DNA of 37,902 nucleotides from Fibrobacteria bacterium (GCA_041746255.1 JBGTHM010000011.1:1-37902); one strand, 5' to 3'. Numbered from the stretch's first letter, positions 7,872-36,200 are shown. The notes: generated by a model not told the origin, from the letters alone. Numbers and translations are program-made.

Positions 7872-7892
7872 AACTGAATCACTCCTATTTAT

Positions 7893-7907
7893 TCGTTAAA
7901 TTAACGA
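7893..7907. promoter_or_regulatory. perfect 15-bp palindrome TCGTTAA-A-TTAACGA, candidate operator
   Basis: Perfect 7-bp inverted repeat about 22 bp upstream of the lyase start codon. Confidence 0.35.
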
Positions 7908-8111
7908 CGCAATCCAATTTTCGCCGCTAAAAAAGAAATTATTTTCGTGACAGTTTATGCTTTTAGAGATCACATCCATATCGGACTCGAAATTTTAGAA
8001 TCGGAGTAAGTTCAACGCGACAATGCAAACACCCTTTGGGGGGCAATGTATAGTGAGCTGCACTTAGACCTTCAAGATTTGGTCCCGAAATCGATACGAT
8101 TGAAGGAATAC

Positions 8112-9122
8112 TTACCAAAGGAAAATGAGCGATTTTGAGCGATGCCCGCTATCCTCACTTTTTGGGGAATACGTATCTAGAATCCGACCATCCAAACTCA
8201 ATATTCGAAGAGGCCTGTCAGGACGGGCATTTTGTCGCAGCTCCTCGAACCGTATACTGGCATGGGGGAAATATTGAGTCGACGGCCCAACGCGGACATG
8301 TTCGACCTCATACACGGCTATATTATCGAAATAGGAATACTGGGTGGCGTAAGTGCCGTTTGAATTCCTGGGCGCCCAATCCGGGCTGTTGCCTCCGAGA
8401 AAGGTGGAGAATAATACCTTGTTAATTTCTGCGTCTGCATTATCGAGCTTACGGAATTGTGCGTTTTCACGCTTCTGGACGAGCTTACCGTTCGCATACA
8501 AGCGGAAAACTCCATTGGAAGCCGAGGCGGGCTTATTCACTTTTACATATTGACAAATCGATTGGTATTCGCCTTTTTTCATTTTATAACCATTTACGCC
8601 GGTACCATTCTCTCCATGTGATTTTTTCATTTTCTGATGGTAAGTGTACGTTATAAGACTTCCTCCATTACCCCACATGGCCCGCGCTGACCATCCATCG
8701 GGCTTGATTGGGTTGCCTCCGGTTATCTTATTCACGGGGCCCAGGCCATGTAATTTCCCACCCTTTACAAATTGAAAATTTTTCTCAAACATCACATCGA
8801 AGCAAAGAGTCGCTTCCATCAAATTTTTAGGCAATCTAAGATCAACCACGATTCGCTCGCTACCTCTGGAGTCTCCGACATATTCAGCCTTTAAAGCGGT
8901 AGAGTTACCGACACCCATCGTTTCGGAGAGGGTCAATTTACGATGCTGGAGAAGAGTAGTCAGGAAATTGTTTGAAGGGACAGAAAAATTTGACTTCGAT
9001 TCAAAATCAATCCAGATAACGGGAGTTGGTTCCGCCGCCAATAAGGGATTAAGCCACAGGCCACCGACTAGAGCGATAAAATTGTAGCCAGCTTTTCCCC
9101 GTTTTTTATGATTTGATTGCAC
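8112..9122 (-). CDS. secreted PL14-like polysaccharide lyase
   Basis: FVKGGKLHGLG, GG…DGWSARAMW, YTYH and FSTFLGG…WAP motifs of PL14-type beta-jelly-roll lyases. Probable GTG start at 9122 after a G-rich RBS (ORF track starts at 9155). Confidence 0.8.
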   Translation of the reverse strand: MQSNHKKRGKAGYNFIALVGGLWLNPLLAAEPTPVIWIDFESKSNFSVPSNNFLTTLLQHRKLTLSETMGVGNSTALKAEYVGDSRGSERIVVDLRLPKNLMEATLCFDVMFEKNFQFVKGGKLHGLGPVNKITGGNPIKPDGWSARAMWGNGGSLITYTYHQKMKKSHGENGTGVNGYKMKKGEYQSICQYVKVNKPASASNGVFRLYANGKLVQKRENAQFRKLDNADAEINKVLFSTFLGGNSPDWAPRNSNGTYATQYSYFDNIAVYEVEHVRVGPSTQYFPHASIRFEELRQNARPDRPLRILSLDGRILDTYSPKSEDSGHRSKSLIFLW

Positions 9123-9182
9123 GATATCCCCCCCCTTTTCGTAATTTCCCATCAAATTTTTTACGAGACGAAGTGAACTATT

Positions 9183-11210: not shown

Positions 11211-11336
11211 GCATCCTCTTTCTATGGCTATTCGGTCGTTCGGGAATTCCGCAATCCGTGAAATTCATTGCACGACATTAATTTTGGTTTAACCTATGGC
11301 GGGGACGGATTTCTGGCCATAGACCCGGATGCAAAT

Positions 11337-11358
11337 GTGGTGAAATTTACTTCACCAC
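11337..11358. promoter_or_regulatory. palindromic operator copy 1 (GTGGTGAA-ATTTAC-TTCACCAC)
   Basis: Perfect 8-bp inverted repeat with a 6-bp spacer, upstream of the lyase cassette and overlapping the GH20 stop codon. Confidence 0.7.
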
Positions 11359-21771: not shown

Positions 21772-21886
21772 CTTCCTTCTCCCATTTGTGAAAATATTGT
21801 CGATCGGGCGATAAGCCTATGCCGAATCGATTACTCACTAAACCTATGTTGGATGGAAGCAATTGTCCATGGACCGCAGTTTAAAA

Positions 21887-21908
21887 GTGATGAATCATTT
21901 TTCACCAC
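21887..21908. promoter_or_regulatory. palindromic operator copy 2 (GTGATGAA-TCATTT-TTCACCAC)
   Basis: Lies in the AT-rich divergent promoter region between the outer-membrane operon and the chitinase. Confidence 0.75.
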
Positions 21909-22125: not shown

Positions 22126-23274
22126 ATGAGAAAAATTCCAACGATGGCATCCGTGGTGGCGGCCGCCCTATTGACGGGTGTTCAGGCGGCTGACATGCAG
22201 GCGCAAGCGGTTCCGGCGGAAACCGAAAATAAATTCCTCATGGGATATTATCCCAACTGGAGCCACTACTCGGGCTTCACTGCCGACAAAATCCCTTATG
22301 ACTACCTGACCCACATCCTATACGCCTTCTACATCACCGACAACGGCGGCAACATATCCAATTCGGATCCCCTCGACGGGGAGAACTTCAAGAAGCTGGT
22401 CAAGAACGCCCACGCCAAGGGTGTCAAGGTGTTGCTTTCCATCGGCGGGGCTTCGCAGTCCGAAGGCTTTAAGGCCATGTCCGCAAGCTCCGGATCGCGC
22501 GCCAACTTCATCAAGAACTGCATCAAAGTAGCCGAGGATCTAAAGCTCGACGGCATTGACCTGGATTGGGAATACCCGGCGGAAGGCGACGGTGACAACC
22601 AGGAAAAGCTGCATAGGGAAATGCGCGCAGCCTTGGATAAGCTGCCCCGGAAAATACTTTTAACCGCCGCCGTTCCGGCCAGCGACTGGTGGGCTCGGCA
22701 TTCCACCGACGAGGCTTTCAAGTTGCTGGATTACCTCAACGTGATGACCTATGACTATATGGGAACGTGGGAGAAGTACGTCATTCCCAATTCCGGTTTC
22801 GACATGTCCACGGCCACCTTGGAATATTATGAGGAGCGAGGCATACCCCGATCCAAGCTCCTGCTGGGCGCGGCCTTCTACGGCAAATCTTTCGACGGCG
22901 CCACCGGCATGGGCTCCACCTACACCGGCAAGGGCAGCGGCCACGACGGAATTTGGCTATGGAAGGATTTGTTGAAGCAGTTCGAAGCGGTGCCTTACAA
23001 TATCATGTGGGACGAAAAGACCAAGAGCGAATTCGCTCTCGGCAACGACGAGATCATCGTTTTCAACGGGCTTCCCAGCCAGCGCGTCTGGGGCGAATAC
23101 GTGCGGAACAGCGAATACGCCGGGGTCATGTTCTGGGACATGCTCTGCGACGTGGAATATAAAAGCAAATCGTTGCTGGTATCTCTTTTCCGCGGCCTGC
23201 GTGGAATCAATCGAGACTCCATGGTCACCCCGCCTCCGGGACCCCAATGGAGCTTGCCGGCAGCCACCGAATAA
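22126..23274 (+). CDS. GH18 chitinase-family glycoside hydrolase, secreted, single domain
   Basis: Signal peptide. GYYPNW, THILYAF, LSIGG, intact catalytic LDGIDLDWEYP, VMTYD, FYG, GVMFW. Confidence 0.95.
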   Translation: MRKIPTMASVVAAALLTGVQAADMQAQAVPAETENKFLMGYYPNWSHYSGFTADKIPYDYLTHILYAFYITDNGGNISNSDPLDGENFKKLVKNAHAKGVKVLLSIGGASQSEGFKAMSASSGSRANFIKNCIKVAEDLKLDGIDLDWEYPAEGDGDNQEKLHREMRAALDKLPRKILLTAAVPASDWWARHSTDEAFKLLDYLNVMTYDYMGTWEKYVIPNSGFDMSTATLEYYEERGIPRSKLLLGAAFYGKSFDGATGMGSTYTGKGSGHDGIWLWKDLLKQFEAVPYNIMWDEKTKSEFALGNDEIIVFNGLPSQRVWGEYVRNSEYAGVMFWDMLCDVEYKSKSLLVSLFRGLRGINRDSMVTPPPGPQWSLPAATE

Positions 23275-23415: not shown

Positions 23416-24552
23416 TCAAAACCTGTCCGCCCACCACATGTGGGCATGGCGAAGGGGAAACCAGGCGTTTAGAAGGGAGGCTTGGGATTTCGTCATCCGG
23501 AGTATTCCCGCCGCCGTCAGATCGGGGGCCGAGCGGTAGCCCATGACCATTTGCAACAAAAAACTATGCGGGATTTTCACGGCGCCGCGTCCCGATCCGG
23601 TCGAGAATCTCGAACCGCGGGAACCGACCTCCAGGACACCATTGCCCAGCTCCGTGGAAATGGCCAAGCGCCCCTTCGGCCCGGCCTTTGCGATTCCGGA
23701 CGCCGCTTTGTCCATGAAGGCGCGCAAGTCGAGGATGAGTCCCATGAATTCGCCGTTGCAGGGATAGCGGATATGGGATTCGCACCCGAACTCCCTGCAG
23801 AAGAGTGCGAAAGGGTGGTCGGGCGGTATTGTGAGCGTCACCTCCTCCTTACCCAGATCCACCGCGCGGCGCGCCAGAAACTCGAGGATGACCGCCTGAA
23901 CGTCCCATCCGGTCCCACCGGCCTCGGAGGCCCTGCACCTGGACGCCTCATCATCGAAAACCAGGTAACCCGCGACCTTTTCCCTTCCGTCGACAATTGC
24001 GCGCATTCCCGGTTTGGTGAAAAAGCCGGCGCTGCGGGGAAAGCCCTGCCATGCCTTAGCGTCCCTGACTATCGAGCCCGTACGGGCCGCGTTTTCCCGG
24101 TTATAGATGCGCACGATAGCGGGAATATCCTCCCGGCGCACCTCTCTAACCTTCAACCCGGAACTTGCCTTTGAACGGCCGAAAAGCGGCCTGACTTTTT
24201 CCGCCGAAAGGGTGGGAATACGCAGTTCATATTCCGGGATGCAGCAGGTGTATCCGAAACGGTGATAGAAATCCGGAATGCCGTGGAGGATAGTGGCCGA
24301 GTAGCCCTCGCGCTTCATCAGCGCCAACGCGCCCCTCATAACCCGGCTGGCGAGGCCCTGTCCCCGGTATTTTTCTTCCGTCTCCACCGAGGAAATCCCC
24401 CCGATCTTCACCTCCGATCCGCCGATACGCATCGTGCGGTCGACAATCCACATTCGGGAGGCGGAATGGCCTGTATCGAGGAGTTCGATTTTCCATCCCG
24501 AAGAGACCCTGTCCGGAGGGCAGGAGCTGGTGCGGGTTTCCTTCATGACCAT
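23416..24552 (-). CDS. Eis-like GNAT N-acetyltransferase
   Basis: GGISSVET-x3-YRGQGLAS acetyl-CoA motif, FYHRFGY, a second GNAT-like domain and an SCP2-like tail ending in DRF. AGGAG RBS. Confidence 0.85.
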   Translation of the reverse strand: MVMKETRTSSCPPDRVSSGWKIELLDTGHSASRMWIVDRTMRIGGSEVKIGGISSVETEEKYRGQGLASRVMRGALALMKREGYSATILHGIPDFYHRFGYTCCIPEYELRIPTLSAEKVRPLFGRSKASSGLKVREVRREDIPAIVRIYNRENAARTGSIVRDAKAWQGFPRSAGFFTKPGMRAIVDGREKVAGYLVFDDEASRCRASEAGGTGWDVQAVILEFLARRAVDLGKEEVTLTIPPDHPFALFCREFGCESHIRYPCNGEFMGLILDLRAFMDKAASGIAKAGPKGRLAISTELGNGVLEVGSRGSRFSTGSGRGAVKIPHSFLLQMVMGYRSAPDLTAAGILRMTKSQASLLNAWFPLRHAHMWWADRF

Positions 24553-24566
24553 GCGGGTGCTCCTCC

Positions 24567-25370
24567 TCAGCGGGAGATTTTGGCGAGCAGTTGTTCCGCG
24601 GTGGGCATGGACGGTACGGAATTTATCAGGTTGCGCGTGTACTCGTCTTTAGGGTTGAGGAAAATATCTTCCGCCGTCGAACATTCGACCAACTTGCCGT
24701 TCCGCATAATGAGGACTTCGTCACTTAGGTATTCCACGACGCCGAGGTTATGGGAGATGAAGAGGTAGGTGAGATCGAGTTCCTTCTGCAGGTCCATCAG
24801 CAGGTTGACGATCTGGGCTTGTATGGACACGTCCAGCGCGGATACCGCCTCGTCGCATACGATGAATTTAGGATCCAGGGCCAAGGCGCGGGCGATGTTG
24901 ATGCGCTGTTGTTGCCCGCCGGAGAATTCGTACGGAAAGGCGTAGGCGAACCGGGGATGGATACCCACTATGTCCATAAGCTCCTTCACCCTTTTCCGGC
25001 GGGATTCCTTATCGCCTATACCCCAAATTCTCATCGGATCCTCGATGGCGGAACCCACGCTCATCTTGGGATTAAGGGAGGAAAAAGGATTCTGGAAAAT
25101 CATCTGCATATTACGACGATAGGGTCGAAATCGCCTATGGGTAATTCCGGAAATAATCTCCCCGTTGAACCTGATCTCCCCGGAGTCCGGCTCGATGAGC
25201 CTCAGTATACATCTGCCCAGAGTGGACTTTCCGGATCCGGATTCTCCCAGCACACCCAACGTCTTGCCCCGGGGTATGCGCAGGCTGATATCATCCACTG
25301 CAACGACACGTTGTCCGCCCTTGCCGAAGGTTTTACTGATGTGGTTCGCCTCGAATATATAGTCAGCCAT
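24567..25370 (-). CDS. oppF: Opp/Dpp-type ABC transporter ATPase (OppF-like)
   Basis: GESGSGKST, FSGGQQQR, IVCDEAVSALD, ISHNL. Confidence 0.9.
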   Translation of the reverse strand: MADYIFEANHISKTFGKGGQRVVAVDDISLRIPRGKTLGVLGESGSGKSTLGRCILRLIEPDSGEIRFNGEIISGITHRRFRPYRRNMQMIFQNPFSSLNPKMSVGSAIEDPMRIWGIGDKESRRKRVKELMDIVGIHPRFAYAFPYEFSGGQQQRINIARALALDPKFIVCDEAVSALDVSIQAQIVNLLMDLQKELDLTYLFISHNLGVVEYLSDEVLIMRNGKLVECSTAEDIFLNPKDEYTRNLINSVPSMPTAEQLLAKISR

Positions 25371-25389: not shown

Positions 25390-26367
25390 TTAATTCGGAA
25401 AGTGGCAGCTCACGAAATGGGAATCGTCCGTTGCCTGAAGCAAAACCGGTGCCTCCGAGCGGCATTTGTCCTTGGCCGCGGGACAGCGCGGGTGGAACCG
25501 GCATCCCTCCGGCAATTGCGTGAGGGGTGGGATATTTCCCTTGATGGGCTCGATGCGTATCCCTTTCCTGCCCAGCTCCATGTTGGAGGAGAACAAGGCT
25601 TTGGTGTACGGATGTCCCGCTTTTGAAACGAGCTGATAGGCTGAACCTTTTTCCATCATCCTGCCGGCATACAGCACCAGCACACGATCACAGTAATTCA
25701 GGGCGACGGGAAGGTTATGGGTGATCATGATGATGGAAAGGCCCAAATCGTCCTTCATCTGCATCATCAATTCCAGGATTTGCTTCTCCACCGTCACGTC
25801 CAGGGCGGTGGTAGGTTCGTCGGCGATGAGGAGTTTGGGGCCGCAGGAAAGGGCCATGGCGATCATCACCCGCTGGCGCATGCCGCCGGAAAGTTCATGG
25901 GGATAGGCTCGGTAACGCATGGCGGGTTCGCGGATGCCCACCTTGTTGAGGAGTTCCACGACCATGTCTTTGACTTCGGAGCGTTTCGCTTTCCCGTGCA
26001 GCAGCATGCCTTCGGCGATTTGCGGGCCTATGCGCAAGGTGGGATTGAGGGAACTCATGGGGTTCTGGAACACGAACCCGATTTCCTTGCCGAGGATTTT
26101 GGCCAGGCCATCGGCGTTGAGCTTGAGCAGGTCGCGCCCCAGAAATAAAGCCTTGCCCCCGGTTTCCCGCCCTTCCTTTTTGATGAGGCCGGTGATGCTG
26201 AGCATGCTCACCGATTTTCCGGATCCCGATTCGCCGACTATGCCCAAAACCTCCCCGGGTCGCAACTTGAAATCCAGCCCGTCCACGGCTTTCAGGAGCC
26301 CCGTATCGGTTTGGAAGGCCACTTTCAGATCCTGCACCTCCAGGATGGGGGCGTCATTCCTTTCCAT
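25390..26367 (-). CDS. oppD: Opp/Dpp-type ABC transporter ATPase (OppD-like)
   Basis: GESGSGKS, YPHELSGGMRQR, ADEPTTALD, HPYT, GCRFHPRC. Confidence 0.92.
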   Translation of the reverse strand: MERNDAPILEVQDLKVAFQTDTGLLKAVDGLDFKLRPGEVLGIVGESGSGKSVSMLSITGLIKKEGRETGGKALFLGRDLLKLNADGLAKILGKEIGFVFQNPMSSLNPTLRIGPQIAEGMLLHGKAKRSEVKDMVVELLNKVGIREPAMRYRAYPHELSGGMRQRVMIAMALSCGPKLLIADEPTTALDVTVEKQILELMMQMKDDLGLSIIMITHNLPVALNYCDRVLVLYAGRMMEKGSAYQLVSKAGHPYTKALFSSNMELGRKGIRIEPIKGNIPPLTQLPEGCRFHPRCPAAKDKCRSEAPVLLQATDDSHFVSCHFPN

Positions 26368-27259
26368 ACACCTCCCGAAGGCCGTCGCCGATGAAGGTGA
26401 AGGCGAGAAGGGTCAGGCCGAAAGTCAGGGAGGGCCAAAGCACCAGGTGAGGAAATCCATACATCTGCATCATGCCGGAACTGATAAGGTTGCCCCAGCT
26501 CGGCATGGGCGGTCGAAGTCCCATTCCGATCAGGCTCATGGCGCTTTCCGCCATCATCGCCGCCGGAATGCCGAAACTCACGGCCACGATGATGGGGCCG
26601 ACGATATTGGGGGCGATGTAACTGCGGATGATATGGCCATCCTTGGAACCCAGGCAGCGGGCGGCCTCCACGTAATCGTTGTTTTTCGCGCTCAGGATTT
26701 GGCCGCGGACCAGGCGTGCGTACCCAGCCCAGCTCGTAATGCCGATGGCGATGAACATGGTCATGAGACCGCGTCCCATGGCCGTCACCAGGATGATAAG
26801 CAGAAGAAACTGCGGAAAGGCGAACATGATGTCCACGATGCGCATCACCAGTATGTCCAGCCATCTGCCGTAATAGCCCGATATGGCGCCGATCACGGCG
26901 CCGATGAGAAGCCCAATGAGCACCGAGCCGAAAGAGACGATGATGGCGTTTCGCGCGCTGTAGATTATCCGTGAAAACAAATCGCGGCCCAGTTCGTCAG
27001 TGCCGAACCAATGCCGCCAGCTCGAGCCCTCCAGGGCGTGGGCGGGGCTGGTAGTCTCGTAGTGGAACGGCGCCACCCAGTCGGCCAGAAAGGCTACGAT
27101 AAAAAGGACGATGATGTAGATGAGGCTCGCAACCGCCGGCTTGTTCCTGCGGAAGCGGCGGATGTCCCTGAAAAAGCCGACGGAACCTCCGTACCGGGCC
27201 TGCTCCGGCCCCGCGCCTACGGCTTCCACGTCTGCATTTTGGGTGTCTGCCTTCGACAT
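26354..27259 (-). CDS. oppC: Opp/Dpp-type ABC permease (OppC-like)
   Basis: HWFGTDELGRD, EAA motif YVEAARCLG, PSWG. Confidence 0.92.
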   Translation of the reverse strand: MSKADTQNADVEAVGAGPEQARYGGSVGFFRDIRRFRRNKPAVASLIYIIVLFIVAFLADWVAPFHYETTSPAHALEGSSWRHWFGTDELGRDLFSRIIYSARNAIIVSFGSVLIGLLIGAVIGAISGYYGRWLDILVMRIVDIMFAFPQFLLLIILVTAMGRGLMTMFIAIGITSWAGYARLVRGQILSAKNNDYVEAARCLGSKDGHIIRSYIAPNIVGPIIVAVSFGIPAAMMAESAMSLIGMGLRPPMPSWGNLISSGMMQMYGFPHLVLWPSLTFGLTLLAFTFIGDGLREVYGKE

Positions 27260-27261
27260 GT

Positions 27262-28224
27262 TTACTCCAGCTTGATCCGCGGATCGAGAATTGCATAGAT
27301 AACGTCCACCGCCAGGTTGACCAGCATGATGGCTGCGGCGAAGATGAGGGTGGAGGTTACCAGCATGGGATAATCCCGGAGTTGGGCCGCCGACACGAAC
27401 AGGGATCCCAGCCCGGGAATGCGGAAGATCTGCTCAACGAGCACACTGCCCAGCAGCATGAAGCTGAATTGGGGGCCCATCACCGTGACCAGGGGAATGA
27501 GCGAGTTGCGCAGCGCATGGGAGGCGATGACCTGGGATTCGCGCAAGCCCTTGGAATACGCCGTGCGGATGAAATCCTGCTCCAGCGTCTCAAGGATGCT
27601 TGAGCGGATGAATCTCGCCACGGTGGCGATGGGGGCCGCGCCGATGGCCAGGGACGGAAGGATATAATGGTTGCACTGTCCCCAGCCGGAGGTGGGGAGC
27701 ACGCCCAGCACCACGGCAAAAAGGACGATTAGGCCCACCGCAATGATAAACGAGGGGATGACCTGTCCGATCATGGACAGCCCCATCAGGGAATAATCCC
27801 ATACGGTGTTTTTCCGCAAGGCGGCGATCACCCCTAAGGGGATGCCGATGAGTATGGCCAGAATCAGACCGATAGCCACGACCTGAAGGGTCACACTGAA
27901 TTTTTCCCTGACCAATTGCTCGATGGGCACGTTGGGATTGACGAAAGAGGGGCCGAACTCGAAGGTGGCGGCGTTCTTCAGAAAAATTCCGATTTGCATA
28001 TAGATGGGCTTGTCCAGGGCATAGCGTTTCTGGAATTCCACCTCGTATTGTTTCTGCGCCTCCTTACCCTTGCTGTCCAAGGCCGCCATGGCTTCGCGCA
28101 CCTGCTGCATTTCCAAAAAATTGCCGGGGGCGGCGTGCATCAGATAAAAAGTGATGGCTACGACGGCCGCGAGGGAGATCGCGATGGAGACGATGCGCTT
28201 GGCGAAAAACTTGAGCAGATTCAT
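27262..28224 (-). CDS. oppB: Opp/Dpp-type ABC permease (OppB-like)
   Basis: LDKP, FIRTAYSKGL, HALRNSLIP, VEQIF-x-IPGLG, RDYP, LDPRI. Confidence 0.92.
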   Translation of the reverse strand: MNLLKFFAKRIVSIAISLAAVVAITFYLMHAAPGNFLEMQQVREAMAALDSKGKEAQKQYEVEFQKRYALDKPIYMQIGIFLKNAATFEFGPSFVNPNVPIEQLVREKFSVTLQVVAIGLILAILIGIPLGVIAALRKNTVWDYSLMGLSMIGQVIPSFIIAVGLIVLFAVVLGVLPTSGWGQCNHYILPSLAIGAAPIATVARFIRSSILETLEQDFIRTAYSKGLRESQVIASHALRNSLIPLVTVMGPQFSFMLLGSVLVEQIFRIPGLGSLFVSAAQLRDYPMLVTSTLIFAAAIMLVNLAVDVIYAILDPRIKLE

Positions 28225-28225
28225 G

Positions 28226-30280
28226 TTAGGAAGATCCCATTCGGCCTGCCCGGGAGAGATAGGCCTCTTTGTCCACCTCGATGTATTGCAAATTGAAGAG
28301 AACGTTCCACATTCCGAATTTGTTGATCGATTCCCCCTGGATGAAGGGGCGCCGCAAGTACACCAGCTTTTCCGAATAAATGGGAATGATCCAATTCTGC
28401 TTAAGGGAGAGCTGGATGAATTCGCGAATCAGGCGCGGTGCCTCGGCATCCTCCAGGGTCATCGTTTCCAGGTGCGCGAAAATCCGGTTCCCCTCGTAAT
28501 TCGCCCTGTTTTGAAAATAGGTGAGGAAGTTGAAATGGGCATCGAGGAGCAAATCCTTGGCGCTTTGCCACTTGGAGATTTTTTCCTCCCGGGTCGCGCC
28601 GTCATTCAAAGTCGCGACGATGCGATCGAATTGGGCAGAGTAGTCGAGTTCCAAAACCTTGCTGCGGTACACGGTATCCGGCTCCGCCTTCCGGATTTGG
28701 GCGAACCAGAGGGCGGCGGAATCGCGCAAGGATTGCAACTCCCGCCAATCTTCCGGCTTGTCCCCCTTGTTCTCCTTTTTGATGTTGATGCGTTCCACGG
28801 TGAGCCGCTTGCGGAGTTCCTTCAGAGGGTAGTCGAAATTCATCCAGAACCAGGAGTGGTCAGCCAGACGGAGCATCATGATGGGATCCTTCCACAACAC
28901 CTTGCCCGGAAAGAGAGTGAGGCCTGGGCGGGTGTAGCGGACATCGTCGATATAGCCACCTCCCCACATATAGGTGGAGAGCATGCCCTCCTCCATGTTT
29001 TCGATGAGCACGTTGAGGCCGATGGCCTTCAGATGGGATTGGATGGCTTCCGCGACGGTTCCCAGGCCCTTGATGTCGGTGGAGGGTGGCGTGAAGATAT
29101 AAATGGGCTCGCCCCGGTAGGACGAACGGGCCAAATAGCGTTTGGCGGCCTCCTTGTCCGGGTTCTCGGTCTTAATCCCCAGGTTGATCAGGGTATCTTC
29201 CATGGGTCCAAAGTTGGAGGTGGGCGTCACCCGTCCACCCATGATATTGTGGGCTATGTCTCCCTTGTCCAGAGCCATGGCGATGGCACGACGCAAATCG
29301 TCATCGTTCATCAACGGGTTTACGGTCCGGGCGATTTGGATGCCCGTGTATCCCATTTCCGGTGTCAGAACCACATGCTCATTCAGGTGTTTCGCTTTGG
29401 TGGCATAAGCGTAGTCGCCCAGCGTCTGCACGTGGGCGACGTCGATCTCGCCCGCTTCGTATTGCTGGATCTGTGCGCTTTGGGCCAGCATGTTCATCGA
29501 CTTCAAGACGAAGCGATCCACGTTGCCGCGCGGGCCGACGTAATACGGGTTAACAACCAATTCGAACTCGCCGTCCGGAACGAAGGTTTTCAGCACGTAG
29601 GGCCCGTTACCTACGAAATGCGTGGGCATCCACCAATTCTCGACTTCGCCGCGGGTCTGGGCGGCTTCGATGCTGGGCTTGTGCATGGGCAGCGCCGAAG
29701 CCAGCGCCAAAAAGCCCAGCAGGGCCTTGGGCTTGATCAGCCGGATTTCCAGGGTATGATCGTCCAGGGCCTTGAAACCCACGGAGTCGGCTGGAACGGT
29801 GCCGGCCTTATAATCCATGGCGCGGACTACCGAGGGGAAGAAGCTGGCCCAGGTCGGCGAAGGCAGTTCCGGGCTGCAGAAACGCGTCCAGCCATACACA
29901 AAATCATGGGCCGTCACGGGGTCCCCGTTCGACCACTGCTTGTCCCTGCGCAAGGCGATCGTCCAGGTCAGCTTGTCGAGGGAAAGGACCCAGGAATCTG
30001 CGATTTTGGGAACCACGTTGAGGTCACGGTCATATCCGAAAAGCCCCTCGAAGAGGGTGCCTTGCATAAGAACGGTCTGGGGGGCCCATACGTAGGGTTC
30101 GAGGCTTTGCGCTGGGTAGCTGGGCAGCCGGACAACGATTTCCCCTTCGCGCCCGCTGCCCGGAATTTTCGCGACCGCGGAGGCTCGCTGGGCGTCGGAG
30201 CAGAAAATGCAATGATAGAGCCCGTACCCTGCCAACGTAACCAGGGCCAGGGGCGCAACCACCCACTTAAGCAAACGCAC
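28226..30280 (-). CDS. oppA: family-5 solute-binding protein (OppA-like), probably oligosaccharide-binding
   Basis: LFEGL, WSNGDPVTAHDFVY, VGNGPY, RRAIAMALDK. N-terminal TM anchor. Likely GTG start at 30280, 1 nt after the upstream TAG (ORF track starts at 30313). Confidence 0.88.
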   Translation of the reverse strand: MRLLKWVVAPLALVTLAGYGLYHCIFCSDAQRASAVAKIPGSGREGEIVVRLPSYPAQSLEPYVWAPQTVLMQGTLFEGLFGYDRDLNVVPKIADSWVLSLDKLTWTIALRRDKQWSNGDPVTAHDFVYGWTRFCSPELPSPTWASFFPSVVRAMDYKAGTVPADSVGFKALDDHTLEIRLIKPKALLGFLALASALPMHKPSIEAAQTRGEVENWWMPTHFVGNGPYVLKTFVPDGEFELVVNPYYVGPRGNVDRFVLKSMNMLAQSAQIQQYEAGEIDVAHVQTLGDYAYATKAKHLNEHVVLTPEMGYTGIQIARTVNPLMNDDDLRRAIAMALDKGDIAHNIMGGRVTPTSNFGPMEDTLINLGIKTENPDKEAAKRYLARSSYRGEPIYIFTPPSTDIKGLGTVAEAIQSHLKAIGLNVLIENMEEGMLSTYMWGGGYIDDVRYTRPGLTLFPGKVLWKDPIMMLRLADHSWFWMNFDYPLKELRKRLTVERINIKKENKGDKPEDWRELQSLRDSAALWFAQIRKAEPDTVYRSKVLELDYSAQFDRIVATLNDGATREEKISKWQSAKDLLLDAHFNFLTYFQNRANYEGNRIFAHLETMTLEDAEAPRLIREFIQLSLKQNWIIPIYSEKLVYLRRPFIQGESINKFGMWNVLFNLQYIEVDKEAYLSRAGRMGSS

Positions 30281-30281
30281 T

Positions 30282-31604
30282 CTATTTGACCATGTCGCCC
30301 AGGTTGATTCCATCCAGGCGGATGTGATCTAACTGGAATTCGGATCCGCCCGTGCCTATGAAGCGGATGGAGCGGATCATGCCGCCCATTTCCTGCCATG
30401 ACTCCGGCTTTTTGATATACAGGGGGAGCTTGGCCGATAGGAATTGAGCATGGTGTTTTTCCGGCGCGTCCGGGAAAACCGAGGCGATTATGCGAAGGTT
30501 ATCGGGAGTTATGGAGACCAGTCCCCAGTCCGCGGTCAGGGCAACCGAATCCATGGCCACCACATGTAAGGGATATCCACCTTTGATTGGGTTTTGAATG
30601 AGTTCGATTACCAAGTTGCCGGTTCCGCGAGCAAAAAAACTGAGAGTGTCAAATGCGGATAGATTGTAATGGATATCGGAACCGCCTAGATTCAATTCAA
30701 CCGTGACAAAAGGATAGGGTTTATCGAGTCCAGCGCCGCCTTCCGTGTATAGGACCTTCAAGGCCTTGCCTCGCTCTCCTCCCTCATTCAATATGGCAGA
30801 GGAGAAATTAAGGGGGGCGGCATTCAAAGGCATGAGCAGCTTGGAGGAGCCACCGACGTATTCATCGCTGTAGGCGTCCCAATAGCCGCCGCCAAGTAGC
30901 GGGCCGATGCTGTTACGGTTGTCTCGATCTTCGAAATCATCTAATAAGACGAACTTGCGTGGTGTTGGAACAATTGTGTCTACTTGCGTCTCAAGTCTCC
31001 CGTCCAGTTCAACTTCGTCGGCGACGAAAAACACCTCGCTGCCATCAGCCTTAACGCTCCGAATCAGGACGGAATAATGCTGTTGCGGCACGGACTTGAG
31101 AGAAAACCCGCCCGTGGATTCGTCAACATCCGCGGAAAAAGGCGTTCCGGCAAGAAGCACTTGCTTGGAGGCGGCCAAAGAATCCATGATCACCCCATTG
31201 TAAGTTACCAGCGCACGCATGGAAATTTTTCCCCAGTACTCCTTATTCAGCCGTTGCTGCGAGACCTCACGGATTAGGAATCCGTTGCTTCCATCGCTTG
31301 CCATGATGCTTGCGACGGTTCCGGAATCAACGTTGAACTTGAATACGCCTGAATCATTCGTGACAGCACTGTCAATCACGATGCTGTTGCCGTTTATAAT
31401 ATTGGTCACCCATTCCTTCTCATTCAAAAGGTAAACCTTTGTGTTCGAAGCCACCACGCCGTCCGGACGCATCACCATTGCGGTGATTCCGTTTGTGGTC
31501 TCGATGGTCCCACCCGCATGTGGGCCGGCGCCGCTTTCGAAGCAACCCCAGAAGATAACGGCCACACTGGAAATGGCAACTGATATGAGCCACCTGCAAC
31601 TCAT
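30282..31604 (-). CDS. lipoprotein with two beta-sandwich stalk domains and a CBM11/CIA30-like domain
   Basis: Lipobox IFWG-C21, then GGTIETTNG. C-terminal LLDDFED…GGYW-x3-SD…GGSS…FFARGTG…W domain. ATGA overlap with the TIGR02147 gene. Confidence 0.75.
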   Translation of the reverse strand: MSCRWLISVAISSVAVIFWGCFESGAGPHAGGTIETTNGITAMVMRPDGVVASNTKVYLLNEKEWVTNIINGNSIVIDSAVTNDSGVFKFNVDSGTVASIMASDGSNGFLIREVSQQRLNKEYWGKISMRALVTYNGVIMDSLAASKQVLLAGTPFSADVDESTGGFSLKSVPQQHYSVLIRSVKADGSEVFFVADEVELDGRLETQVDTIVPTPRKFVLLDDFEDRDNRNSIGPLLGGGYWDAYSDEYVGGSSKLLMPLNAAPLNFSSAILNEGGERGKALKVLYTEGGAGLDKPYPFVTVELNLGGSDIHYNLSAFDTLSFFARGTGNLVIELIQNPIKGGYPLHVVAMDSVALTADWGLVSITPDNLRIIASVFPDAPEKHHAQFLSAKLPLYIKKPESWQEMGGMIRSIRFIGTGGSEFQLDHIRLDGINLGDMVK

Positions 31605-32437
31605 TTCAAATTCCTCCGTCTGGCGGTAAGCGGGAAAAGCTGTAAATTCATTTGATACACCCGGTCCGGATTGCTGTAGCTATTGGCTAGTTTCTTGAGC
31701 GACTCGCGACACTCGCCAACCAATTCCCGGATCTCCGGAATGGCGGCTTCAGGAATGTTTAAGGTCAAGGTCGATATGTCCCGTTCTTCTTTTTGAAATC
31801 GCTCAAGTGATCCCTCCGCCAGGCGAATCATCTCCCTTTGGTATTCGGTGATGGCCAAGGATTGCCATTCCTTGCCTGTAGTCAGATTGAGTCCGGCGGC
31901 ATAGAATTCCCCGTCCTCGGTCCTTTTAATGAGACCGAGATCGTCCAACAATTTCAAAGCAGCCTTGGCCTCTTTTGCGGTTATGGCAGGTGCCAATTGA
32001 GTCGCGATATCCTTGGCTTCTCCTTTGAAGGATTCCCCGGAGAGCAGAGACCAAACCGCCGAGTAATACCATTTTTGGAAGAATTCGTATTGATTTTTCC
32101 CAAGCTTGTCGGATTTTGCCTTGTTTAAGGAAAGCATCTTCTCGAAATAGATTTTGCTGTCCTTTTCCGTCTTCGCTTTACTGAAGTGGACCAGGCAATT
32201 GAAAAAAGCGGCTTCCTGATCGTTGAATCCACAAACCTTGGTGAATTTATCAATCCGGTTGTCGGCGATATGGAGATTACCTTGCAGCACCTTAATCAGG
32301 AAGCTGGAATCCATACCCACTCTATTCCCAATGTACCTATAGGAAATAAAGGCGCTGGTTTTTTTCTGTTGGATATAAAAATCTCTCAGAAATGCGCGGT
32401 AATCCAAATAATCGTATACGCTAATCACTAACTTCAA
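31601..32437 (-). CDS. TIGR02147/DUF4423-family protein with N-terminal HTH-like region
   Basis: YxDYRxFLRDFY…SYR…G…L-x-KVLQG, WYYSAV, ERDISTLTL, VYQMNLQLFPL are characteristic of the family. TTG start. Confidence 0.9.
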   Translation of the reverse strand: MKLVISVYDYLDYRAFLRDFYIQQKKTSAFISYRYIGNRVGMDSSFLIKVLQGNLHIADNRIDKFTKVCGFNDQEAAFFNCLVHFSKAKTEKDSKIYFEKMLSLNKAKSDKLGKNQYEFFQKWYYSAVWSLLSGESFKGEAKDIATQLAPAITAKEAKAALKLLDDLGLIKRTEDGEFYAAGLNLTTGKEWQSLAITEYQREMIRLAEGSLERFQKEERDISTLTLNIPEAAIPEIRELVGECRESLKKLANSYSNPDRVYQMNLQLFPLTARRRNLK

Positions 32438-32477
32438 TTTATGCCTGAACCGTTTATTTGTCCACCAAGGTTATTAG

Positions 32478-32623
32478 GAATGTGATGAAGAATAGTTCAC
32501 CAAAATACCCCAAACATCCCGAATGTGAGCCAAATTATCCAAAGTTAAGACGCTATGTGCTCTGGCGCCGAGGGACATTTTTCATCGGTAGCTAATTATT
32601 CCAGCGGTGTTTTCACCAATTCC
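32478..32623. repeat. diverged direct repeat, copy A (operator plus relic of the nagB 3' end)
   Basis: Aligns with 36086-36200 apart from a ~30-bp extra segment. Minus strand encodes ELVKTPLE*. Confidence 0.85.
32482..32503. promoter_or_regulatory. palindromic operator copy 3 (GTGATGAA-GAATAG-TTCACCAA)
   Basis: About 45 bp upstream of the TIGR02147 start codon. Confidence 0.75.
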
Positions 32624-32627
32624 GACC

Positions 32628-35600
32628 TCAATTTCTGATAAGGCCGAATTTTTTCTTTTCCTCGAACCTGCCCGGTTGCGCTCCCGTCCTCAGGTCCCGG
32701 CCGGTGACGAAGGTGGCCTTGAGAATATACGCCCCGGTGCCGACCCGGGTTCCCCTGCTGGTCCATCCCGTCCAGACGATAGGCACTTCATAGCTGGCCC
32801 CCAACGCCGTGCTGGTGTATTTCACCTGGGAGAGATCCTGCTCGTTTATTTTACCGGTACCCGAGGCGATAAACTCGCCCACGTTGCTGAATATTTTAAA
32901 ATCGTAATCCAACGGTCCCGGCGTGAAAATCTGGAAAACCGGTCCCACGAATATTCCGCCCTGTTGGGGCTGACAGCTCTCGCATTTGCCGTCCGAATGT
33001 CCCGGAAGGGGCGCTCCATCCTTATTGATGGGAATGAACAACGCATTCTGGCGATGGGTGATGGGAGCTCCCTGGGAAGCTGTTTCCCGGGTTCCGTTGG
33101 GGAAAAGGATCACCAGCTTGACCGGCTTGGGTTGGGGCGGTAGGCCGTCCAGCAAGCGAAAGAGCTTGATGGACGGCGAATTGCCATTGGCGTCCCTGGT
33201 TACGCGATTGGTGTTGATGGCTACCGAATCCCCAACAATGGGAAAGACGGTGGAGTTTTCATCGATGAAGAATACCACCCGTCTGGTATCCATCAGCTCG
33301 TGGCGCAAGATCACCACGGCGCCGGCAGGGAGTTCCGAGCCGTCCCTTTTGAATACCAGCGGCAGCGAGGCCTCGGACGAGAGGGTCACTGGTTCCGAGT
33401 AGGTGATGATGACGCGTTTCAAGGGAATGTCCGCATCGGGTTCCTTAATTTCCGCGCCGAGAATGATGGGTGGTATTGAATCGTCCACGGCAAAGGCGCC
33501 GTCGTTCAAGGGGAAATTATCCTGCCGGAAGGTTTGACCGGAGAAATCCCGATTGCGCAAGGACGTAATACCCTGATCGAAAGGCGAAACGAAGGTGACG
33601 ATGGCGCGGTTCCCGGACAGGGTGATTTCTCCGGCGGAGGCAGTGCGGACATATTCCTTCCCGTCCTCACCGGTGATCCTGAACGTCAATTTCTCCGGAG
33701 CCGAGGGAGGAACCTTTTCGAATTGGACGATGGCTTTGTCGATGTGTCCATCGCCGTTCTCATCCAGATACCAGGCCTTTGAGATGCCGATGGTAGGCAG
33801 GTTGGTGGGCGTGGCCACCTGCGGGGGCACGGGGGGATCGCCGCAAATGGCGGTGGAATGGGCGGTGAAATCAAGTTGCTGCACCGTGGAGTTTCCGCAG
33901 CCATCCGTGGAACGCACCCAAAGCGCGCCCTTCTCCCCTCTCTTGGGGTAACCGGGACGTTTACAGGAAACGTGGAATTCGTATTTGTTGCCGCCAAGGT
34001 GGGTGGCGGCGTTCCAGACGACCCAGTTTGTGTCCATGCTCCAATCCGCTTTGATTCCAGGTTCATTGTCCTTGGTGTCGAAGGTCACCTTGAACCCGGG
34101 ATCGATGATGGGCGCTATGGCCGCGCCTTTCACGGGGGAAGTGAGGGTGAGATTCGGATAGATTTCGTCCTTGAGCTTGCCCGCGCAGGTGCGGGCGTTC
34201 TTGCTGTTGCGGTCTACCATCAGGCGGAAATCGGATTGGACGGGTACCAGGCGTCTCCGTGAGGGCAGGTAGTTTTTCGCGACGCGCAGAATCGTCAGCC
34301 AGTCATAGCGAAAGCTTATGGCCTCCTTGCCGTTGGTGGAGGGCGCCTTGCCTTTGAGCCGGTTGAAGGCGCATTCCAGATCCGTCTGTAAAGCCTTCCT
34401 CTGTTCCACATCGAGGTCGAAGTGTAAGAGCAGTCCACCATCCGCTTGGGTCTCGGGTGTGCCGGGAGAGGCGGTTCCCCCATAGAAGAAACGCCGGATC
34501 TCGGTCCAGGTAATGTCCGCGTCATAGATTATGTTACCGCCTCCGCAGGTGGAGGAGGATTTCGACGCGTCTACCTGCGCGTCCAGCAACCTGAACACAT
34601 TGGTCCGGTAATCACCGTTGCCCGCTGGAAACCTGAGAGACGCCTGGGGATCGTTTTTCAGATTAGGATCCTTGAGGGCGGACTCGAAACCGGAATTGGG
34701 GCCGAGATTGTAGCCGGGGATGAGAGCGGCGAGGCCGACTCGCGGATCTTTGCCGTTGACTATGGCATCGGCGAAGCAAAGGTCGGTGGAATGCTCCAGG
34801 CCGTCATAAAGCCAATACCAAACCAGGGCGGAAGAAAGGACGGAGTTGGCGATTTGTGGAGAGTTGGGGCCGGTGCCGCCGGCTCCGGGCGCGGGTGTGT
34901 ATCCGGGCGTACGCATGTAGAAGGCGGAGGCGGCGGTCCATTGACCATTGTCTCCGGAACAGGAGGCTGCAGTGGTCACGTCCCGAAACCTACCCATGCA
35001 GGGGCCGTATTTGGGGTAGAACTGTGGATAGGATTGCATGGTGCGGGCGAAGGTGGTGGCTTCGATTTCCCATGGGCTGAACGCGCCGTCGTCGTCTCGG
35101 TTGAAACTCGCCCATTCCGAAATGGAACCCAGGTTTTCCCTGCCATGCTCGACGAAGCCGAACATGGTTTCCTTGCCGGCAATGGCGGCCAGAAATTGCA
35201 TGTCCACATTCAGGATTTCCTGGGCCATGGACAGGGCCATCATGTACTGCGGGCCGCCCAAGGAACGGGGATCCCATTTGACCTGCATTCCGTTCAACGT
35301 GACGGGAGTGGAGGGAATGGCCGCCTGGATTTGCGTCTGACCGAAAAAGGTGGATACCAGACCACCGAAGCTCTCTCCTCCATTTGTTCCTATGGAATCG
35401 ACAATACACTGGGTTCCATAAAAGGAGGTTGGCGCTTGCGCGGGGATGGCGGCACATTTCAAGGGTTCCGCGTCCGTATAAGGCGGCGCCTCGCTGCATG
35501 AGCCGGTTTTGACCAAAGTCTGCGGGTCGAATAAGGTCCCGTTCTGCCCGGCGGCCAGAGTGCCGGTATAATCCACGGCGGCGGCTCTACAGACGCCCGC

Positions 35601-35912
35601 CTGCATTTGTTGCTGGTCGTTGGGAGGAATCTTCTGCGTATACTCGACGGGGGCAGCTCCCTCCCGGGTCAGTCCCTGCATCCAGGTCGAATAACCAGCG
35701 AAGTCTTGGGTACGGAATTTCCAGCCCTCGACCAATTGCGGAGACGCCGTCTCATTGCAGGTGTGCACCCGTGGATATTGGGTGCCCGGCCCGACCAGAT
35801 TGTCGTTGCCCTGAAACGTGACGGAAACCTGGGATTGGCCGATCCCAAAAAAGGAAAGACAAACCGCCCGAATCAGGAGCCTTTTTCGGAAATGTGACAT
35901 TTTTATCATCAT
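32628..35912 (-). CDS. large secreted protein: Cys-rich/lysozyme-like N-terminal region, Ig-like domain, Fibrobacter-type C-terminal region
   Basis: Signal peptide after ATG 35912/35909/35900. AIAGKET and GYNLG motifs, Pro-rich linker, YLDENGDGHID, and FlgD-Ig-like end IFSNVGEFI…WTG…G-x-RVGTGAYI. Confidence 0.75.
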   Translation of the reverse strand: MMIKMSHFRKRLLIRAVCLSFFGIGQSQVSVTFQGNDNLVGPGTQYPRVHTCNETASPQLVEGWKFRTQDFAGYSTWMQGLTREGAAPVEYTQKIPPNDQQQMQAGVCRAAAVDYTGTLAAGQNGTLFDPQTLVKTGSCSEAPPYTDAEPLKCAAIPAQAPTSFYGTQCIVDSIGTNGGESFGGLVSTFFGQTQIQAAIPSTPVTLNGMQVKWDPRSLGGPQYMMALSMAQEILNVDMQFLAAIAGKETMFGFVEHGRENLGSISEWASFNRDDDGAFSPWEIEATTFARTMQSYPQFYPKYGPCMGRFRDVTTAASCSGDNGQWTAASAFYMRTPGYTPAPGAGGTGPNSPQIANSVLSSALVWYWLYDGLEHSTDLCFADAIVNGKDPRVGLAALIPGYNLGPNSGFESALKDPNLKNDPQASLRFPAGNGDYRTNVFRLLDAQVDASKSSSTCGGGNIIYDADITWTEIRRFFYGGTASPGTPETQADGGLLLHFDLDVEQRKALQTDLECAFNRLKGKAPSTNGKEAISFRYDWLTILRVAKNYLPSRRRLVPVQSDFRLMVDRNSKNARTCAGKLKDEIYPNLTLTSPVKGAAIAPIIDPGFKVTFDTKDNEPGIKADWSMDTNWVVWNAATHLGGNKYEFHVSCKRPGYPKRGEKGALWVRSTDGCGNSTVQQLDFTAHSTAICGDPPVPPQVATPTNLPTIGISKAWYLDENGDGHIDKAIVQFEKVPPSAPEKLTFRITGEDGKEYVRTASAGEITLSGNRAIVTFVSPFDQGITSLRNRDFSGQTFRQDNFPLNDGAFAVDDSIPPIILGAEIKEPDADIPLKRVIITYSEPVTLSSEASLPLVFKRDGSELPAGAVVILRHELMDTRRVVFFIDENSTVFPIVGDSVAINTNRVTRDANGNSPSIKLFRLLDGLPPQPKPVKLVILFPNGTRETASQGAPITHRQNALFIPINKDGAPLPGHSDGKCESCQPQQGGIFVGPVFQIFTPGPLDYDFKIFSNVGEFIASGTGKINEQDLSQVKYTSTALGASYEVPIVWTGWTSRGTRVGTGAYILKATFVTGRDLRTGAQPGRFEEKKKFGLIRN

Positions 35913-36020
35913 GTAATTCTTCGATAGGTGGATTTCGATTTGGTTCATGCGCAATACCTTATCCTGTACTGCCAAAACTAGGGTCGAAGGGTGAGTTTGT
36001 CCACCGGTGCCCACGCGAAA

Positions 36021-36042
36021 GTGATGAACTCCTTATCATCAG
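36021..36042. promoter_or_regulatory. palindromic operator copy 4 (GTGATGAA-CTCCTT-ATCATCAG)
   Basis: Same arms and spacer as the other copies, upstream of the large secreted gene. Confidence 0.6.
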
Positions 36043-36085: not shown

Positions 36086-36200
36086 GAATGTGATGAAGTG
36101 GCGTTCACCAAAATACCGACAATTAGGACGTCTTGTGATCTGGCGTCGTGGCCAGTTTTCATCGGTAGCTACTTATTCCAAAGGTGATTTCACCAGCTCC
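36086..36200. repeat. diverged direct repeat, copy B (operator plus nagB 3' end)
   Basis: Shares GAATGTGATGAAG, GTTCACCAAAATACC and TTTTCATCGGTAGCTA-TTATTCCA with 32478-32623. Confidence 0.85.
36090..36111. promoter_or_regulatory. palindromic operator copy 5 (GTGATGAA-GTGGCG-TTCACCAA)
   Basis: Same arms and spacer as the other copies. Confidence 0.75.

Follow-up and report, generated by a model that had tools for sequence, protein, structure and literature searches.

Local sugar regulators that have palindromes before their own operon are often repressors. The described regulators of chitin and N-acetylglucosamine (GlcNAc) utilization are drawn from several families and include NagC (ROK), DasR and NagR (GntR), a further NagR (LacI), and ChiS with the chitin-oligosaccharide-binding protein CBP. 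Activation from a distance is typified by class I promoters of CRP, where the site is centred at -61.5. Here we compare with these systems a locus from a Fibrobacteria bacterium (GCA_041746255.1 JBGTHM010000011.1:1-37902). The stretch analysed, referred to as the window, is 37,902 nucleotides (nt) long and is the entire contig C11 of a 4.59-Mb, 130-contig genome (G000). It carries a gene of the TIGR02147/DUF4423 family, coupled to a lipoprotein gene and preceded by a palindrome. We consider it fairly probable that the TIGR02147 protein is a dimeric transcription factor which activates an amino-sugar glycan regulon through this palindrome, and that the lipoprotein captures the glycan. The first step, binding of the palindrome by the TIGR02147 protein, is well supported by sequence comparison. 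The central features are the following.

31601..32437, minus strand: TIGR02147/DUF4423 regulator gene, 278 amino acids (aa) as listed, assigned by profile matches.
30282..31604, minus strand: lipoprotein gene, 440 aa, with its ATG overlapping the regulator stop as ATGA.
32483..32502, minus strand: palindrome before the regulator operon, TGGTGAACTATTCTTCATCA in gene orientation.
32436..32464, minus strand: predicted sigma-70-type promoter, TGGACA (32464..32459), 17 nt, TAAATT (32441..32436), starting 18 nt after the palindrome.

The palindrome spans 20 bases and reads TGGTGAA-N6-TTCATCA. An earlier note on this DNA had placed it about 45 bp upstream of the regulator start, and we find it 46 nt ahead of the TTG at 32437, or 55 nt ahead of the GTG at 32428. 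A repeat search of the window returned five copies, at 11334, 21884, 32479, 36018 and 36087. Allowing up to two mismatches, TGRTGAA-N6-TTCAYCA matches the window five times against 0.42 expected, and none of 100 shuffles reached five. The whole genome has five exact copies, four in the window and one on C9, a contig of 2.5 kb, where it precedes a GH18 gene by about 150 nt; every one of the five stands ahead of glycan genes. Besides the copy before the regulator operon, the window contains:

36091..36110, minus strand: palindrome, distal copy, 69 nt upstream of the next and without a promoter of its own.
36022..36041, minus strand: palindrome with one mismatch, then 18 nt, TGGACA, 17 nt and TAGTTT, before the open reading frame (ORF) 32628..36014.
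21888..21907, minus strand: palindrome and promoter before a CBM30-to-GH20 run.
11338..11357, minus strand: palindrome and promoter before the 9183..11210 lyase run.

Against the palindrome being an RNA hairpin or terminator, a terminator scan lists nothing at it, and it sits upstream of the predicted transcription start. Two of the copies also have a 51-nt direct repeat (84% identity; 32573-32623 and 36150-36200) about 85-116 nt upstream of them. The repeat holds an extra TGGTGAA half-site within a compressed GGTGA..(T)CACC mini-palindrome and may serve as an auxiliary site or be what is left of a terminator; in the related genomes G009, G013 and G017 a TGGTGAA word likewise lies about 86 nt upstream of the main palindrome.

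The site and the regulator occur together across genomes. Our comparison covered 41 genomes, G000 and 40 relatives, 40 of which have TIGR02147 matches; one of the set, the unpublished genome G021, was used just in the tallies of TIGR02147, site, Crp and LacI matches. Homologs with at least 55% identity to the regulator are present only in the trio G017, G013 and G009 (73%) and in G030 (58% and 55%). Four to five exact sites are likewise confined to G000, G009, G013, G017 and G030, two genomes have one site, and 34 have none. All exact sites of G009 (5/5) and G013 (4/4) are on the homolog's contig, with one 50-65 nt before the homolog, and the palindrome takes the same position before the homologs of G009, G013 and G017. 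Taken alone, this co-occurrence could reflect inheritance of the whole locus. Four metagenome-assembled genomes (MAGs) of other families, however, encode homologs of 50-53% identity with an exact site at -85 to -87, next to a DUF2341/Laminin_G_3 lipoprotein and neighbours encoding pectinesterase, GH2 and arabinofuranosidase; tblastn of the window lipoprotein and other locus genes against these four MAGs gave no match. In all five such other-family genomes (family f13, 3.3-6.7 Mb) the exact motif has one or two copies genome-wide, one of them before the regulator. Because other-family homologs keep the site amid different genes, the site tracks the regulator and not the locus. The position before the regulator's own gene, earlier read as a sign of autoregulation, is thus conserved among homologs.

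A second line of evidence comes from covariation between the palindrome and the presumed recognition helix. We searched 296 phylum genomes and took the best locus from each of the 30 that matched best. Of these loci, 28 entered the alignment and two, with an unreadable helix-turn-helix (HTH), were dropped; a site was scored at one mismatch or fewer within 260 nt upstream. The signature M-D-S-S-x-x-I at residues 42-48 is found in 14/14 site-bearing homologs, which form a single clade, and in 0/14 homologs without a site. The columns that best separate the two groups, tied, are S44 and I48 in predicted helix 3 and D9 near the N-terminus; the recognition helix of a second, winged-helix module varies inside the site-bearing group. 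Other helices go with other palindromes. In 6/6 genomes with a subgroup member that reads D-[AP]-S-Y-L-[LA]-K-V in helix 3, the gene is preceded at 108-138 nt by (G)TGGACA-N4-TGTCCA (loci L126, L128, L131, L130, L134 and L124 of G079, G081, G078, G091, G090 and G051). Two single homologs, in G102 and G264, combine M-D-P-G-Y-L-V-R-V with GTTGAT-N6-ATCAAC and M-D-P-S-H-I-V-K-I with GTGGAA-N6-TTCCAC, respectively. The covariation proposed in the earlier note is therefore seen in other subgroups of the family, and co-occurrence and helix covariation together make the TIGR02147 protein the best in silico candidate for the palindrome binder.

The protein itself matches NCBIfam TIGR02147 ('Fsuc_second') over model positions 2-271 of 272 with 261 bits against a curated cut-off of 50 (E 1.2e-77), and Pfam DUF4423 (PF14394) over residues 105-270 with 121.8 bits against a gathering score of 30 (E 3.1e-35). 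Its structure, modelled on an alignment of the 21 paralogs of G000 (22-35% identity), has a mean predicted local distance difference test (pLDDT) score of 85.5 and divides into an XRE-like HTH (residues ~10-93), a putative winged helix (~107-186) and a predicted dimerising C-terminus (~191-273). Residues 32-53, SYRYIGNRVGMDSSFLIKVLQG, are modelled as a helix (33-40), a turn and a second helix (44-51). Residues 10-93 align to the XRE-type regulator 3pxp (Z 8.6, root-mean-square deviation (rmsd) 3.1 over 82 residues) and match HigA (Z ~8), DdrO (Z 7.6) and C.AhdI (Foldseek probability 0.99, template modelling (TM) score 0.57). Residues 107-186 align to winged helices of the ArsR/MarR/PadR type at Z 8.4-9.0, among them 2p4w (Z 9.0) and 2oqg (Z 8.7, rmsd 2.6, 73 residues). 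A homodimer model scored 0.61 in each of three runs, the best of three controls scoring 0.00; the runs have at least 94% of contacts in common, a partner pLDDT of at least 78, and an interface of residues 197-273 in which strands 260-271 pair. In the calibration of the tool, 20/30 proteins solved as pairs and 1/23 solved as single chains reached the mark, counts that hold only roughly for the custom alignment used here. No membrane segment is found in the regulator, the highest 19-residue hydropathy being 0.81, and the models support a soluble dimer.

The placement of the site relative to the predicted promoters bears on the sign of regulation. A consensus promoter scan independently gives TGGACA-17-TAAATT at 32464..32436. 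Sampling G000, G009, G013 and G017, we find that at 16 of 17 sites the palindrome is followed after exactly 18 nt by a hexamer resembling TGGACA and then, again after a constant 17 nt, by TA[AG][AGT]TT; the lone exception is the distal copy at 36091. The asymmetry of the palindrome is kept in 14/17 sites, with TGGTGAA distal and TTCATCA proximal. Genome-wide, the spacing of T[TG]GACA...TAnnTT peaks at 17 nt (14 matches) and 18 nt (8), other spacings having 1-3. Promoters upstream of likely tRNA genes (judged from a tRNA-5'-end-like flank, without a tRNA scan) read TTGACA ... TAATTT, and because they carry TTGACA where the regulon has TGGACA, the regulon -35 is sub-optimal. As read from these sequences, the regulon promoters are sigma-70-like with a weakened -35, and the predicted site is centred near -63.5. 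Judged against class I promoters of CRP, the fixed spacing, fixed orientation and poor -35 favour activation over repression.

The strongest competing explanation retains the same protein and site and makes the protein a repressor, with an imported amino-sugar oligomer releasing its own operon and the other promoters. It can draw on the general precedent of local sugar regulators with palindromes at their own operon, on family f13, where the sole genome site precedes the regulator's own gene, a layout that would suit simple negative autoregulation, and on the tandem sites at 36022 and 36091, which are 69 nt apart and could support looping. We nevertheless regard repression as unlikely. At 16 of 17 sites the palindrome ends exactly 18 nt before the -35-like hexamer and never lies over the -35, the -10 or the predicted start; the -35 falls short of the TTGACA of the likely tRNA promoters; and constant orientation and spacing are what an activator in contact with polymerase needs, not what a roadblock needs. 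The earlier description of the site as an operator would accordingly need revision, since a site at a fixed place upstream of a weak -35 does not look like a repressor operator on the promoter.

Several observations concern the promoter elements themselves. The predicted -10 (TAAATT, 32441..32436) overlaps the TTG at 32437, and the GTG at 32428 comes 7 nt after that -10, an arrangement also seen in G009 and G013 (15 nt in G017). The real start of the regulator is likely this GTG (275 aa) and not the TTG, because homologs start at the equivalent GTG; with 7 nt from -10 to GTG, the regulator mRNA would therefore be leaderless or nearly so and the TTG is probably not a start. The -35-like TGGACA falls within a perfect 10-bp palindrome, GTCCATGGAC, at several promoters of the regulon (window ~21862-21875, C9, G009:C100:48772 and G013:C65:77694), and other promoters read GGTGGACA. 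TGGACA is also the half-site of the palindrome before another TIGR02147 subgroup. A -35/-10 regular expression run upstream of the G000 paralogs found the pattern at this paralog only, two hits on C20 being AT-rich noise.

We propose the following scheme. A soluble dimer most likely reads TGGTGAA-N6-TTCATCA with its N-terminal XRE-like HTH and, bound 18 nt upstream of a weak -35 (centre ~-63.5), most likely helps RNA polymerase to start. The predicted targets would be its own operon (regulator, glycan-binding lipoprotein, Opp/Dpp-type importer and GNAT), three additional window promoters (those of the large secreted protein, of the run from CBM30 to GH20 and of the lyase genes) and, outside the window, the GH18 gene on C9, together a putative regulon for amino-sugar (chitin-type) glycan utilisation. 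The lipoprotein, as first structural product, would place lipid-anchored tandem beta-sandwiches and a CBM11-like module at the envelope, where it probably captures the glycan. In this scheme the genes, the site statistics, the co-occurrence and the geometry are observed, and binding, the sign of regulation, the inducer and the ligand of the lipoprotein are inferred.

A number of points weigh against this scheme. The XRE-type HTH that the earlier note saw in SYRYIGNRVGMDSSFLIKVLQG stands as a helix-turn-helix of the model with middling XRE fold matches; as a profile match it does not stand, for no Pfam HTH model (HTH_3, HTH_31 and relatives) matches the regulator at E up to 10, where DUF4423 alone is reported. 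By the scale of the comparison tool, every fold match of the regulator is of middling quality (Z 9.0 or below). Its best Foldseek match is MarR 2qww at E 0.013, with nothing at E 0.001 or better, and a sequence search of solved structures returned nothing meaningful (best E 0.28). The regulator has no recognisable ligand-binding domain. Relatedness confounds the 14/14 versus 0/14 split, since the site-bearing homologs are one clade and the counts are not independent, and G054, at 50% identity with M-D-S-S-F-I-V (V at position 48), has no site. The closest copy in G030 has only a 2-mismatch site, and G003 (homologs of 51-52%) has a 1-mismatch site at -162; G003 and the second G030 copy read TGGTGAA-N6-TTCCTCA. 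A palindrome search at the other 20 paralogs of G000 gave candidates upstream of many, and a crude search (up to two mismatches) gave a repeated local palindrome for only one of the 20, on C32. The sign of regulation is read solely from predicted hexamers, and for family f13, which is AT-rich, reading by eye left the promoter elements ambiguous. Finally, PL14 and alginate-lyase-like genes are part of the locus, and 'chitin' is perhaps too narrow a label; the regulon substrate may be a mixed amino-sugar/uronate glycan rather than plain chitin.

The C32 palindrome, CTGTTCCC-N4-GGGAACAG, is located at 50061-50080 and 56061-56080, one copy before the gene and the other 6 kb away, and its flanks show no 18/17 geometry by eye.

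The lipoprotein has a hydrophobic N-terminus consistent with a signal peptide that ends in a lipobox, although its residues at -3 and -2 (F, W) are unusual. In its homologs (n=18, 28-49% identity) Cys21 is invariant (18/18), mostly preceded by Gly, and the motif AGGTIETTNG comes right after it. The model (pLDDT 84.1) consists of a low-confidence tether (15-37), two beta-sandwiches and a C-terminal jelly roll (218-440). The CBM11-like domain claimed in the earlier note is borne out as a fold: residues 218-440 match C. thermocellum CBM11 (6r31_A, Foldseek E 3.7e-8, TM 0.70 on the target; 1v0a, TM 0.71 on the target), the CBM11 matches having 18-19% identity, and other top matches are Bacteroides SGBP-B (7k44, E 1.8e-7), CIA30 and CBM30. 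The CBM11 sequence profile (Pfam PF03425) is unmatched in Pfam and NCBIfam, where the sole Pfam match at E up to 10 is CarboxypepD_reg (E 0.0037). The locus content suggests an amino-sugar glycan as ligand of the module. From its modelled fold the lipoprotein is probably a glycan-capture protein at the envelope, not a proven sensor.

Pairing with a lipoprotein is general in this genome, where all 21 TIGR02147 genes are directly followed by a lipoprotein-like gene. Relative to the end of the regulator stop, the partner begins anywhere from 22 nt upstream to 7 nt downstream, with an ATGA overlap in 12/21. In Pfam the 21 partners match CarboxypepD_reg (10), Laminin_G_3 (5) and DUF2341 (4), and nine have no match. 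A tether motif, A-G-G-[TS]-x-[ED]-x-x-N-[PG], follows the anchor Cys (residues 21-40, window 31480-31545) and is common to partners with otherwise differing domains. A loose regular expression for it matched just 9/21 partners; with a position-specific scoring matrix, a noisy one in which 3 of the 20 partner rows are wrong ORFs near a partner gene, 8/20 partner-locus ORFs outscore all 789 other lipoprotein-like ORFs of G000. Judged by these scores, the motif seems specific to the cassette partners.

This constancy invites the view that the two proteins are a signalling pair, in which the lipoprotein senses glycan at the envelope and signals to the regulator through the tether motif or a released peptide. 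The invariable gene order with frequent ATGA coupling, a G-[GTS]-x-[ED]-x-x-N-like motif past the anchor Cys in the low-confidence tether, the scores of that motif, and an Opp-type importer in the same operon all agree with it. The regulator, however, has no membrane or exported part, one regulator clade and one palindrome are combined elsewhere with unrelated lipoproteins, and no transducer gene is conserved with the pair; most sister cassettes examined do not adjoin an Opp importer, and the SBP_bac_5 importer suits oligosaccharide uptake, as in chitobiose transporters. We judge signalling of this kind improbable. The pair is constrained, and the pairing does not amount to signalling. Of the earlier suggestion that the lipoprotein captures or senses the glycan, capture fits the fold and nothing supports the sensing half.

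A more far-reaching version would make the cassettes the Fibrobacterota counterpart of the sensor-regulator modules of polysaccharide utilization loci (PULs), with lipoprotein and regulator in communication. The tether AGG-T-x-E-x-x-N would then be released or presented on glycan capture and would reach the cytoplasmic regulator, possibly as a peptide re-imported by the Opp-type transporter of the operon, by analogy with Gram-positive pheromones, which are cut from lipoprotein precursors. If true, such a cassette would be a new envelope-to-DNA signalling route in thousands of cassettes; we give this version very little credence.

Returning to the TIGR02147 protein as the binder, the palindrome might instead belong to a Crp/Fnr, LacI, GntR or ROK regulator encoded elsewhere, the TIGR02147 gene being merely a target. 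The GTGA..TCAC core recalls CRP-type sites, class I CRP sites sit near -63, and the genome has one Crp-family gene. The Crp protein, however, has close homologs in most of the 41 genomes; matches occur in 40, including 33 of the 34 without a site, and the match in G030, which has four sites, is only 25% identical. For the single LacI protein, homologs are confined to G000, G001 and G006; G001 and G006 are siteless, and the other four site-bearing genomes are unmatched. Crp and LacI were rejected as motif binders on this distribution. There is no ROK match in the genome, and GntR-like matches lie only within two large atypical ORFs, whose distribution across genomes was not traced. In the five f13 genomes the one or two copies of the motif always include one before a TIGR02147 gene, and the 58-kb locus of G009 (88 ORFs of at least 170 aa) has no DNA-binding family but DUF4423. 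The earlier note had reserved its case against a rival regulator co-occurring better with the motif; neither Crp nor LacI does so, and we consider an outside regulator extremely improbable. The palindrome is also not the -35/-10 of an alternative sigma factor, a candidate rejected because 6 nt separate its halves and a distinct -35/-10 pair comes after it.

The GntR-like domain pairs are in ORFs of 599 and 543 aa (G000:C97:50736-51128 and C112:1462-1818), and the ORF on C97 lies about 1.5 kb before another TIGR02147 paralog.

The remaining genes of the locus are as follows.

28226..30313, minus strand: family-5 solute-binding protein (SBP_bac_5; PF00496, E 2.4e-63) of an ATP-binding cassette (ABC) importer.
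27262..28224 and 26354..27259, minus strand: two Opp/Dpp-type permeases, by Pfam/NCBIfam matches.
25390..26367 and 24567..25370, minus strand: two ABC ATPases, by Pfam/NCBIfam matches.
23416..24552, minus strand: GNAT-like gene, final gene of the run, with the same order kept in G009 and G013.
32628..36014, minus strand: large ORF without a Pfam match, 1128 aa as listed.
22126..23274, plus strand: GH18 gene, divergent from the CBM30-to-GH20 run.
21771 down to 11352, minus strand: unknown gene, CBM30 protein, 797-aa protein, two outer-membrane-barrel-like proteins, GH20.
9183..11210, minus strand: alginate-lyase-like gene (PF05426) with PA14.
8112..9155: PL14, then 6570..7871, both after the alginate-lyase-like gene.

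The regulator and lipoprotein genes do head an ABC importer operon, as had been proposed: the regulator TGA (31603..31601) overlaps the lipoprotein ATG (31604..31602), confirming the ATGA coupling, and the SBP_bac_5, permease, ATPase and GNAT-like genes trail the lipoprotein gene on the same strand with gaps or overlaps of at most 32 nt. The importer is identified as Opp/Dpp-type by its binding protein of family 5, by its pair of BPD_transp_1 permeases, of which one carries OppC_N, and by the oligo_HPY tail of both ATPases. Among the 29 larger window ORFs scanned (ORFs below about 150 aa were outside the scan), no DNA-binding Pfam domain was found besides that of the regulator, which to this extent is the sole HTH-like gene of the locus, as earlier claimed. 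The same 29 ORFs include no SusC/SusD family, and the likeness to a SusE/F-type PUL is one of fold and architecture only. A PIG-L/NagB-like gene is also on the contig. One palindrome copy heads the alginate-lyase-like and PL14 genes (window 6570-11210).

The C-terminal 390 residues of the large ORF resemble big proteins beside palindrome copies in G009, G013 and G017. Its listed start, GTG 36014, is upstream of the predicted -35/-10 (36003..35975), and the true start is probably an ATG about 30 nt past its -10. In G009 the locus additionally holds genes for isocitrate lyase and malate synthase (G009:C100:41049-44791; L079 13053-16792) between the ABC operon and a GH18 gene; they are absent from the window.

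The TIGR02147 family is large. At 50% identity, 10,012 clusters match the regulator with an E of at most 0.001 and 4,474 with an E of at most 1e-10, and relatives have up to at least 61 TIGR02147 matches each. The 21 copies of G000 stand against one LacI gene, one Crp gene and no ROK match. A full-text literature search gave no functional study of the family, a DUF4423 protein being merely listed in a proteome table, and the papers listed for paralogous lipoprotein/helix-turn-helix proteins of Fibrobacter succinogenes have nothing on it by title or abstract. To this family the locus adds a predicted 20-bp site, coherent target promoters, a site-linked signature in the recognition helix and a prediction of activation. 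If our reading is true, TIGR02147 proteins probably supply the local control of glycan degradation that has been missing in Fibrobacterota, and their regulons could be read from sequence.

How does this locus compare with the described systems? With chitin and GlcNAc regulons it shares GH18, GH20, a family-5 importer like that for chitobiose in Vibrio and a nearby PIG-L/NagB-like gene. None of the families of their regulators is in the locus, however, the genome as a whole having no ROK match, one LacI and no typical GntR, and the palindrome does not resemble their described sites. The lipoprotein's residues 218-440 are modelled with the jelly-roll fold of CBM11 of C. thermocellum Lic26A-Cel5E (1v0a, 6r31), CIA30 and CBM30. 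In contrast to CBM11, a binder of mixed-linkage glucan, the module has no CBM profile match, is borne by a lipoprotein instead of an enzyme, and is suggested by the locus to meet an amino-sugar glycan.

Bacteroidota PULs, governed by SusR, hybrid two-component systems or extracytoplasmic function (ECF) sigma/anti-sigma pairs and equipped with SusE/F or SGBP-B (PDB 7k44, 6e57), likewise combine a local regulator with a glycan-binding-type lipoprotein, and in both cases tandem beta-sandwiches with a terminal glycan-binding module are encoded beside glycoside hydrolases and an uptake system. They differ in that uptake here is by an Opp/Dpp-type ABC importer, with no SusC/SusD pair among the window ORFs scanned, and in that the regulator is small, cytoplasmic and without a sensor domain.

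Class I activation by CRP, as at lac, offers a parallel in promoter layout: a weak -35 has, at a constant distance upstream, a site of about 20 bp for a dimer, the centre of our palindrome falling near -63.5 if the predicted -10 is right. The protein folds are unrelated, the spacing between GTGA and TCAC is 8 nt in our palindrome against 6 nt in CRP sites, and the Crp-family protein of this genome shows no co-occurrence with the palindrome.

Small XRE-family regulators with a palindrome before their own gene, such as the controller (C) proteins of restriction-modification systems (C.AhdI, PDB 1y7y), HigA antitoxins and DdrO, provide the best fold matches of the regulator's N-terminal part. Unlike them, the regulator has no Pfam HTH match, continues into a predicted winged-helix module and then a C-terminal part for dimerisation (DUF4423), and has its site upstream of the -35, not over it; its gene is always coupled to a lipoprotein gene and belongs to an expanded family (21 copies here, at least 60 in relatives). 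The likeness lies in the N-terminal 90 residues, modelled as a five-helix XRE-type domain, in the predicted dimer and the palindrome before its own gene, and in the very short or absent leader that the regulator gene would share with C-protein genes.

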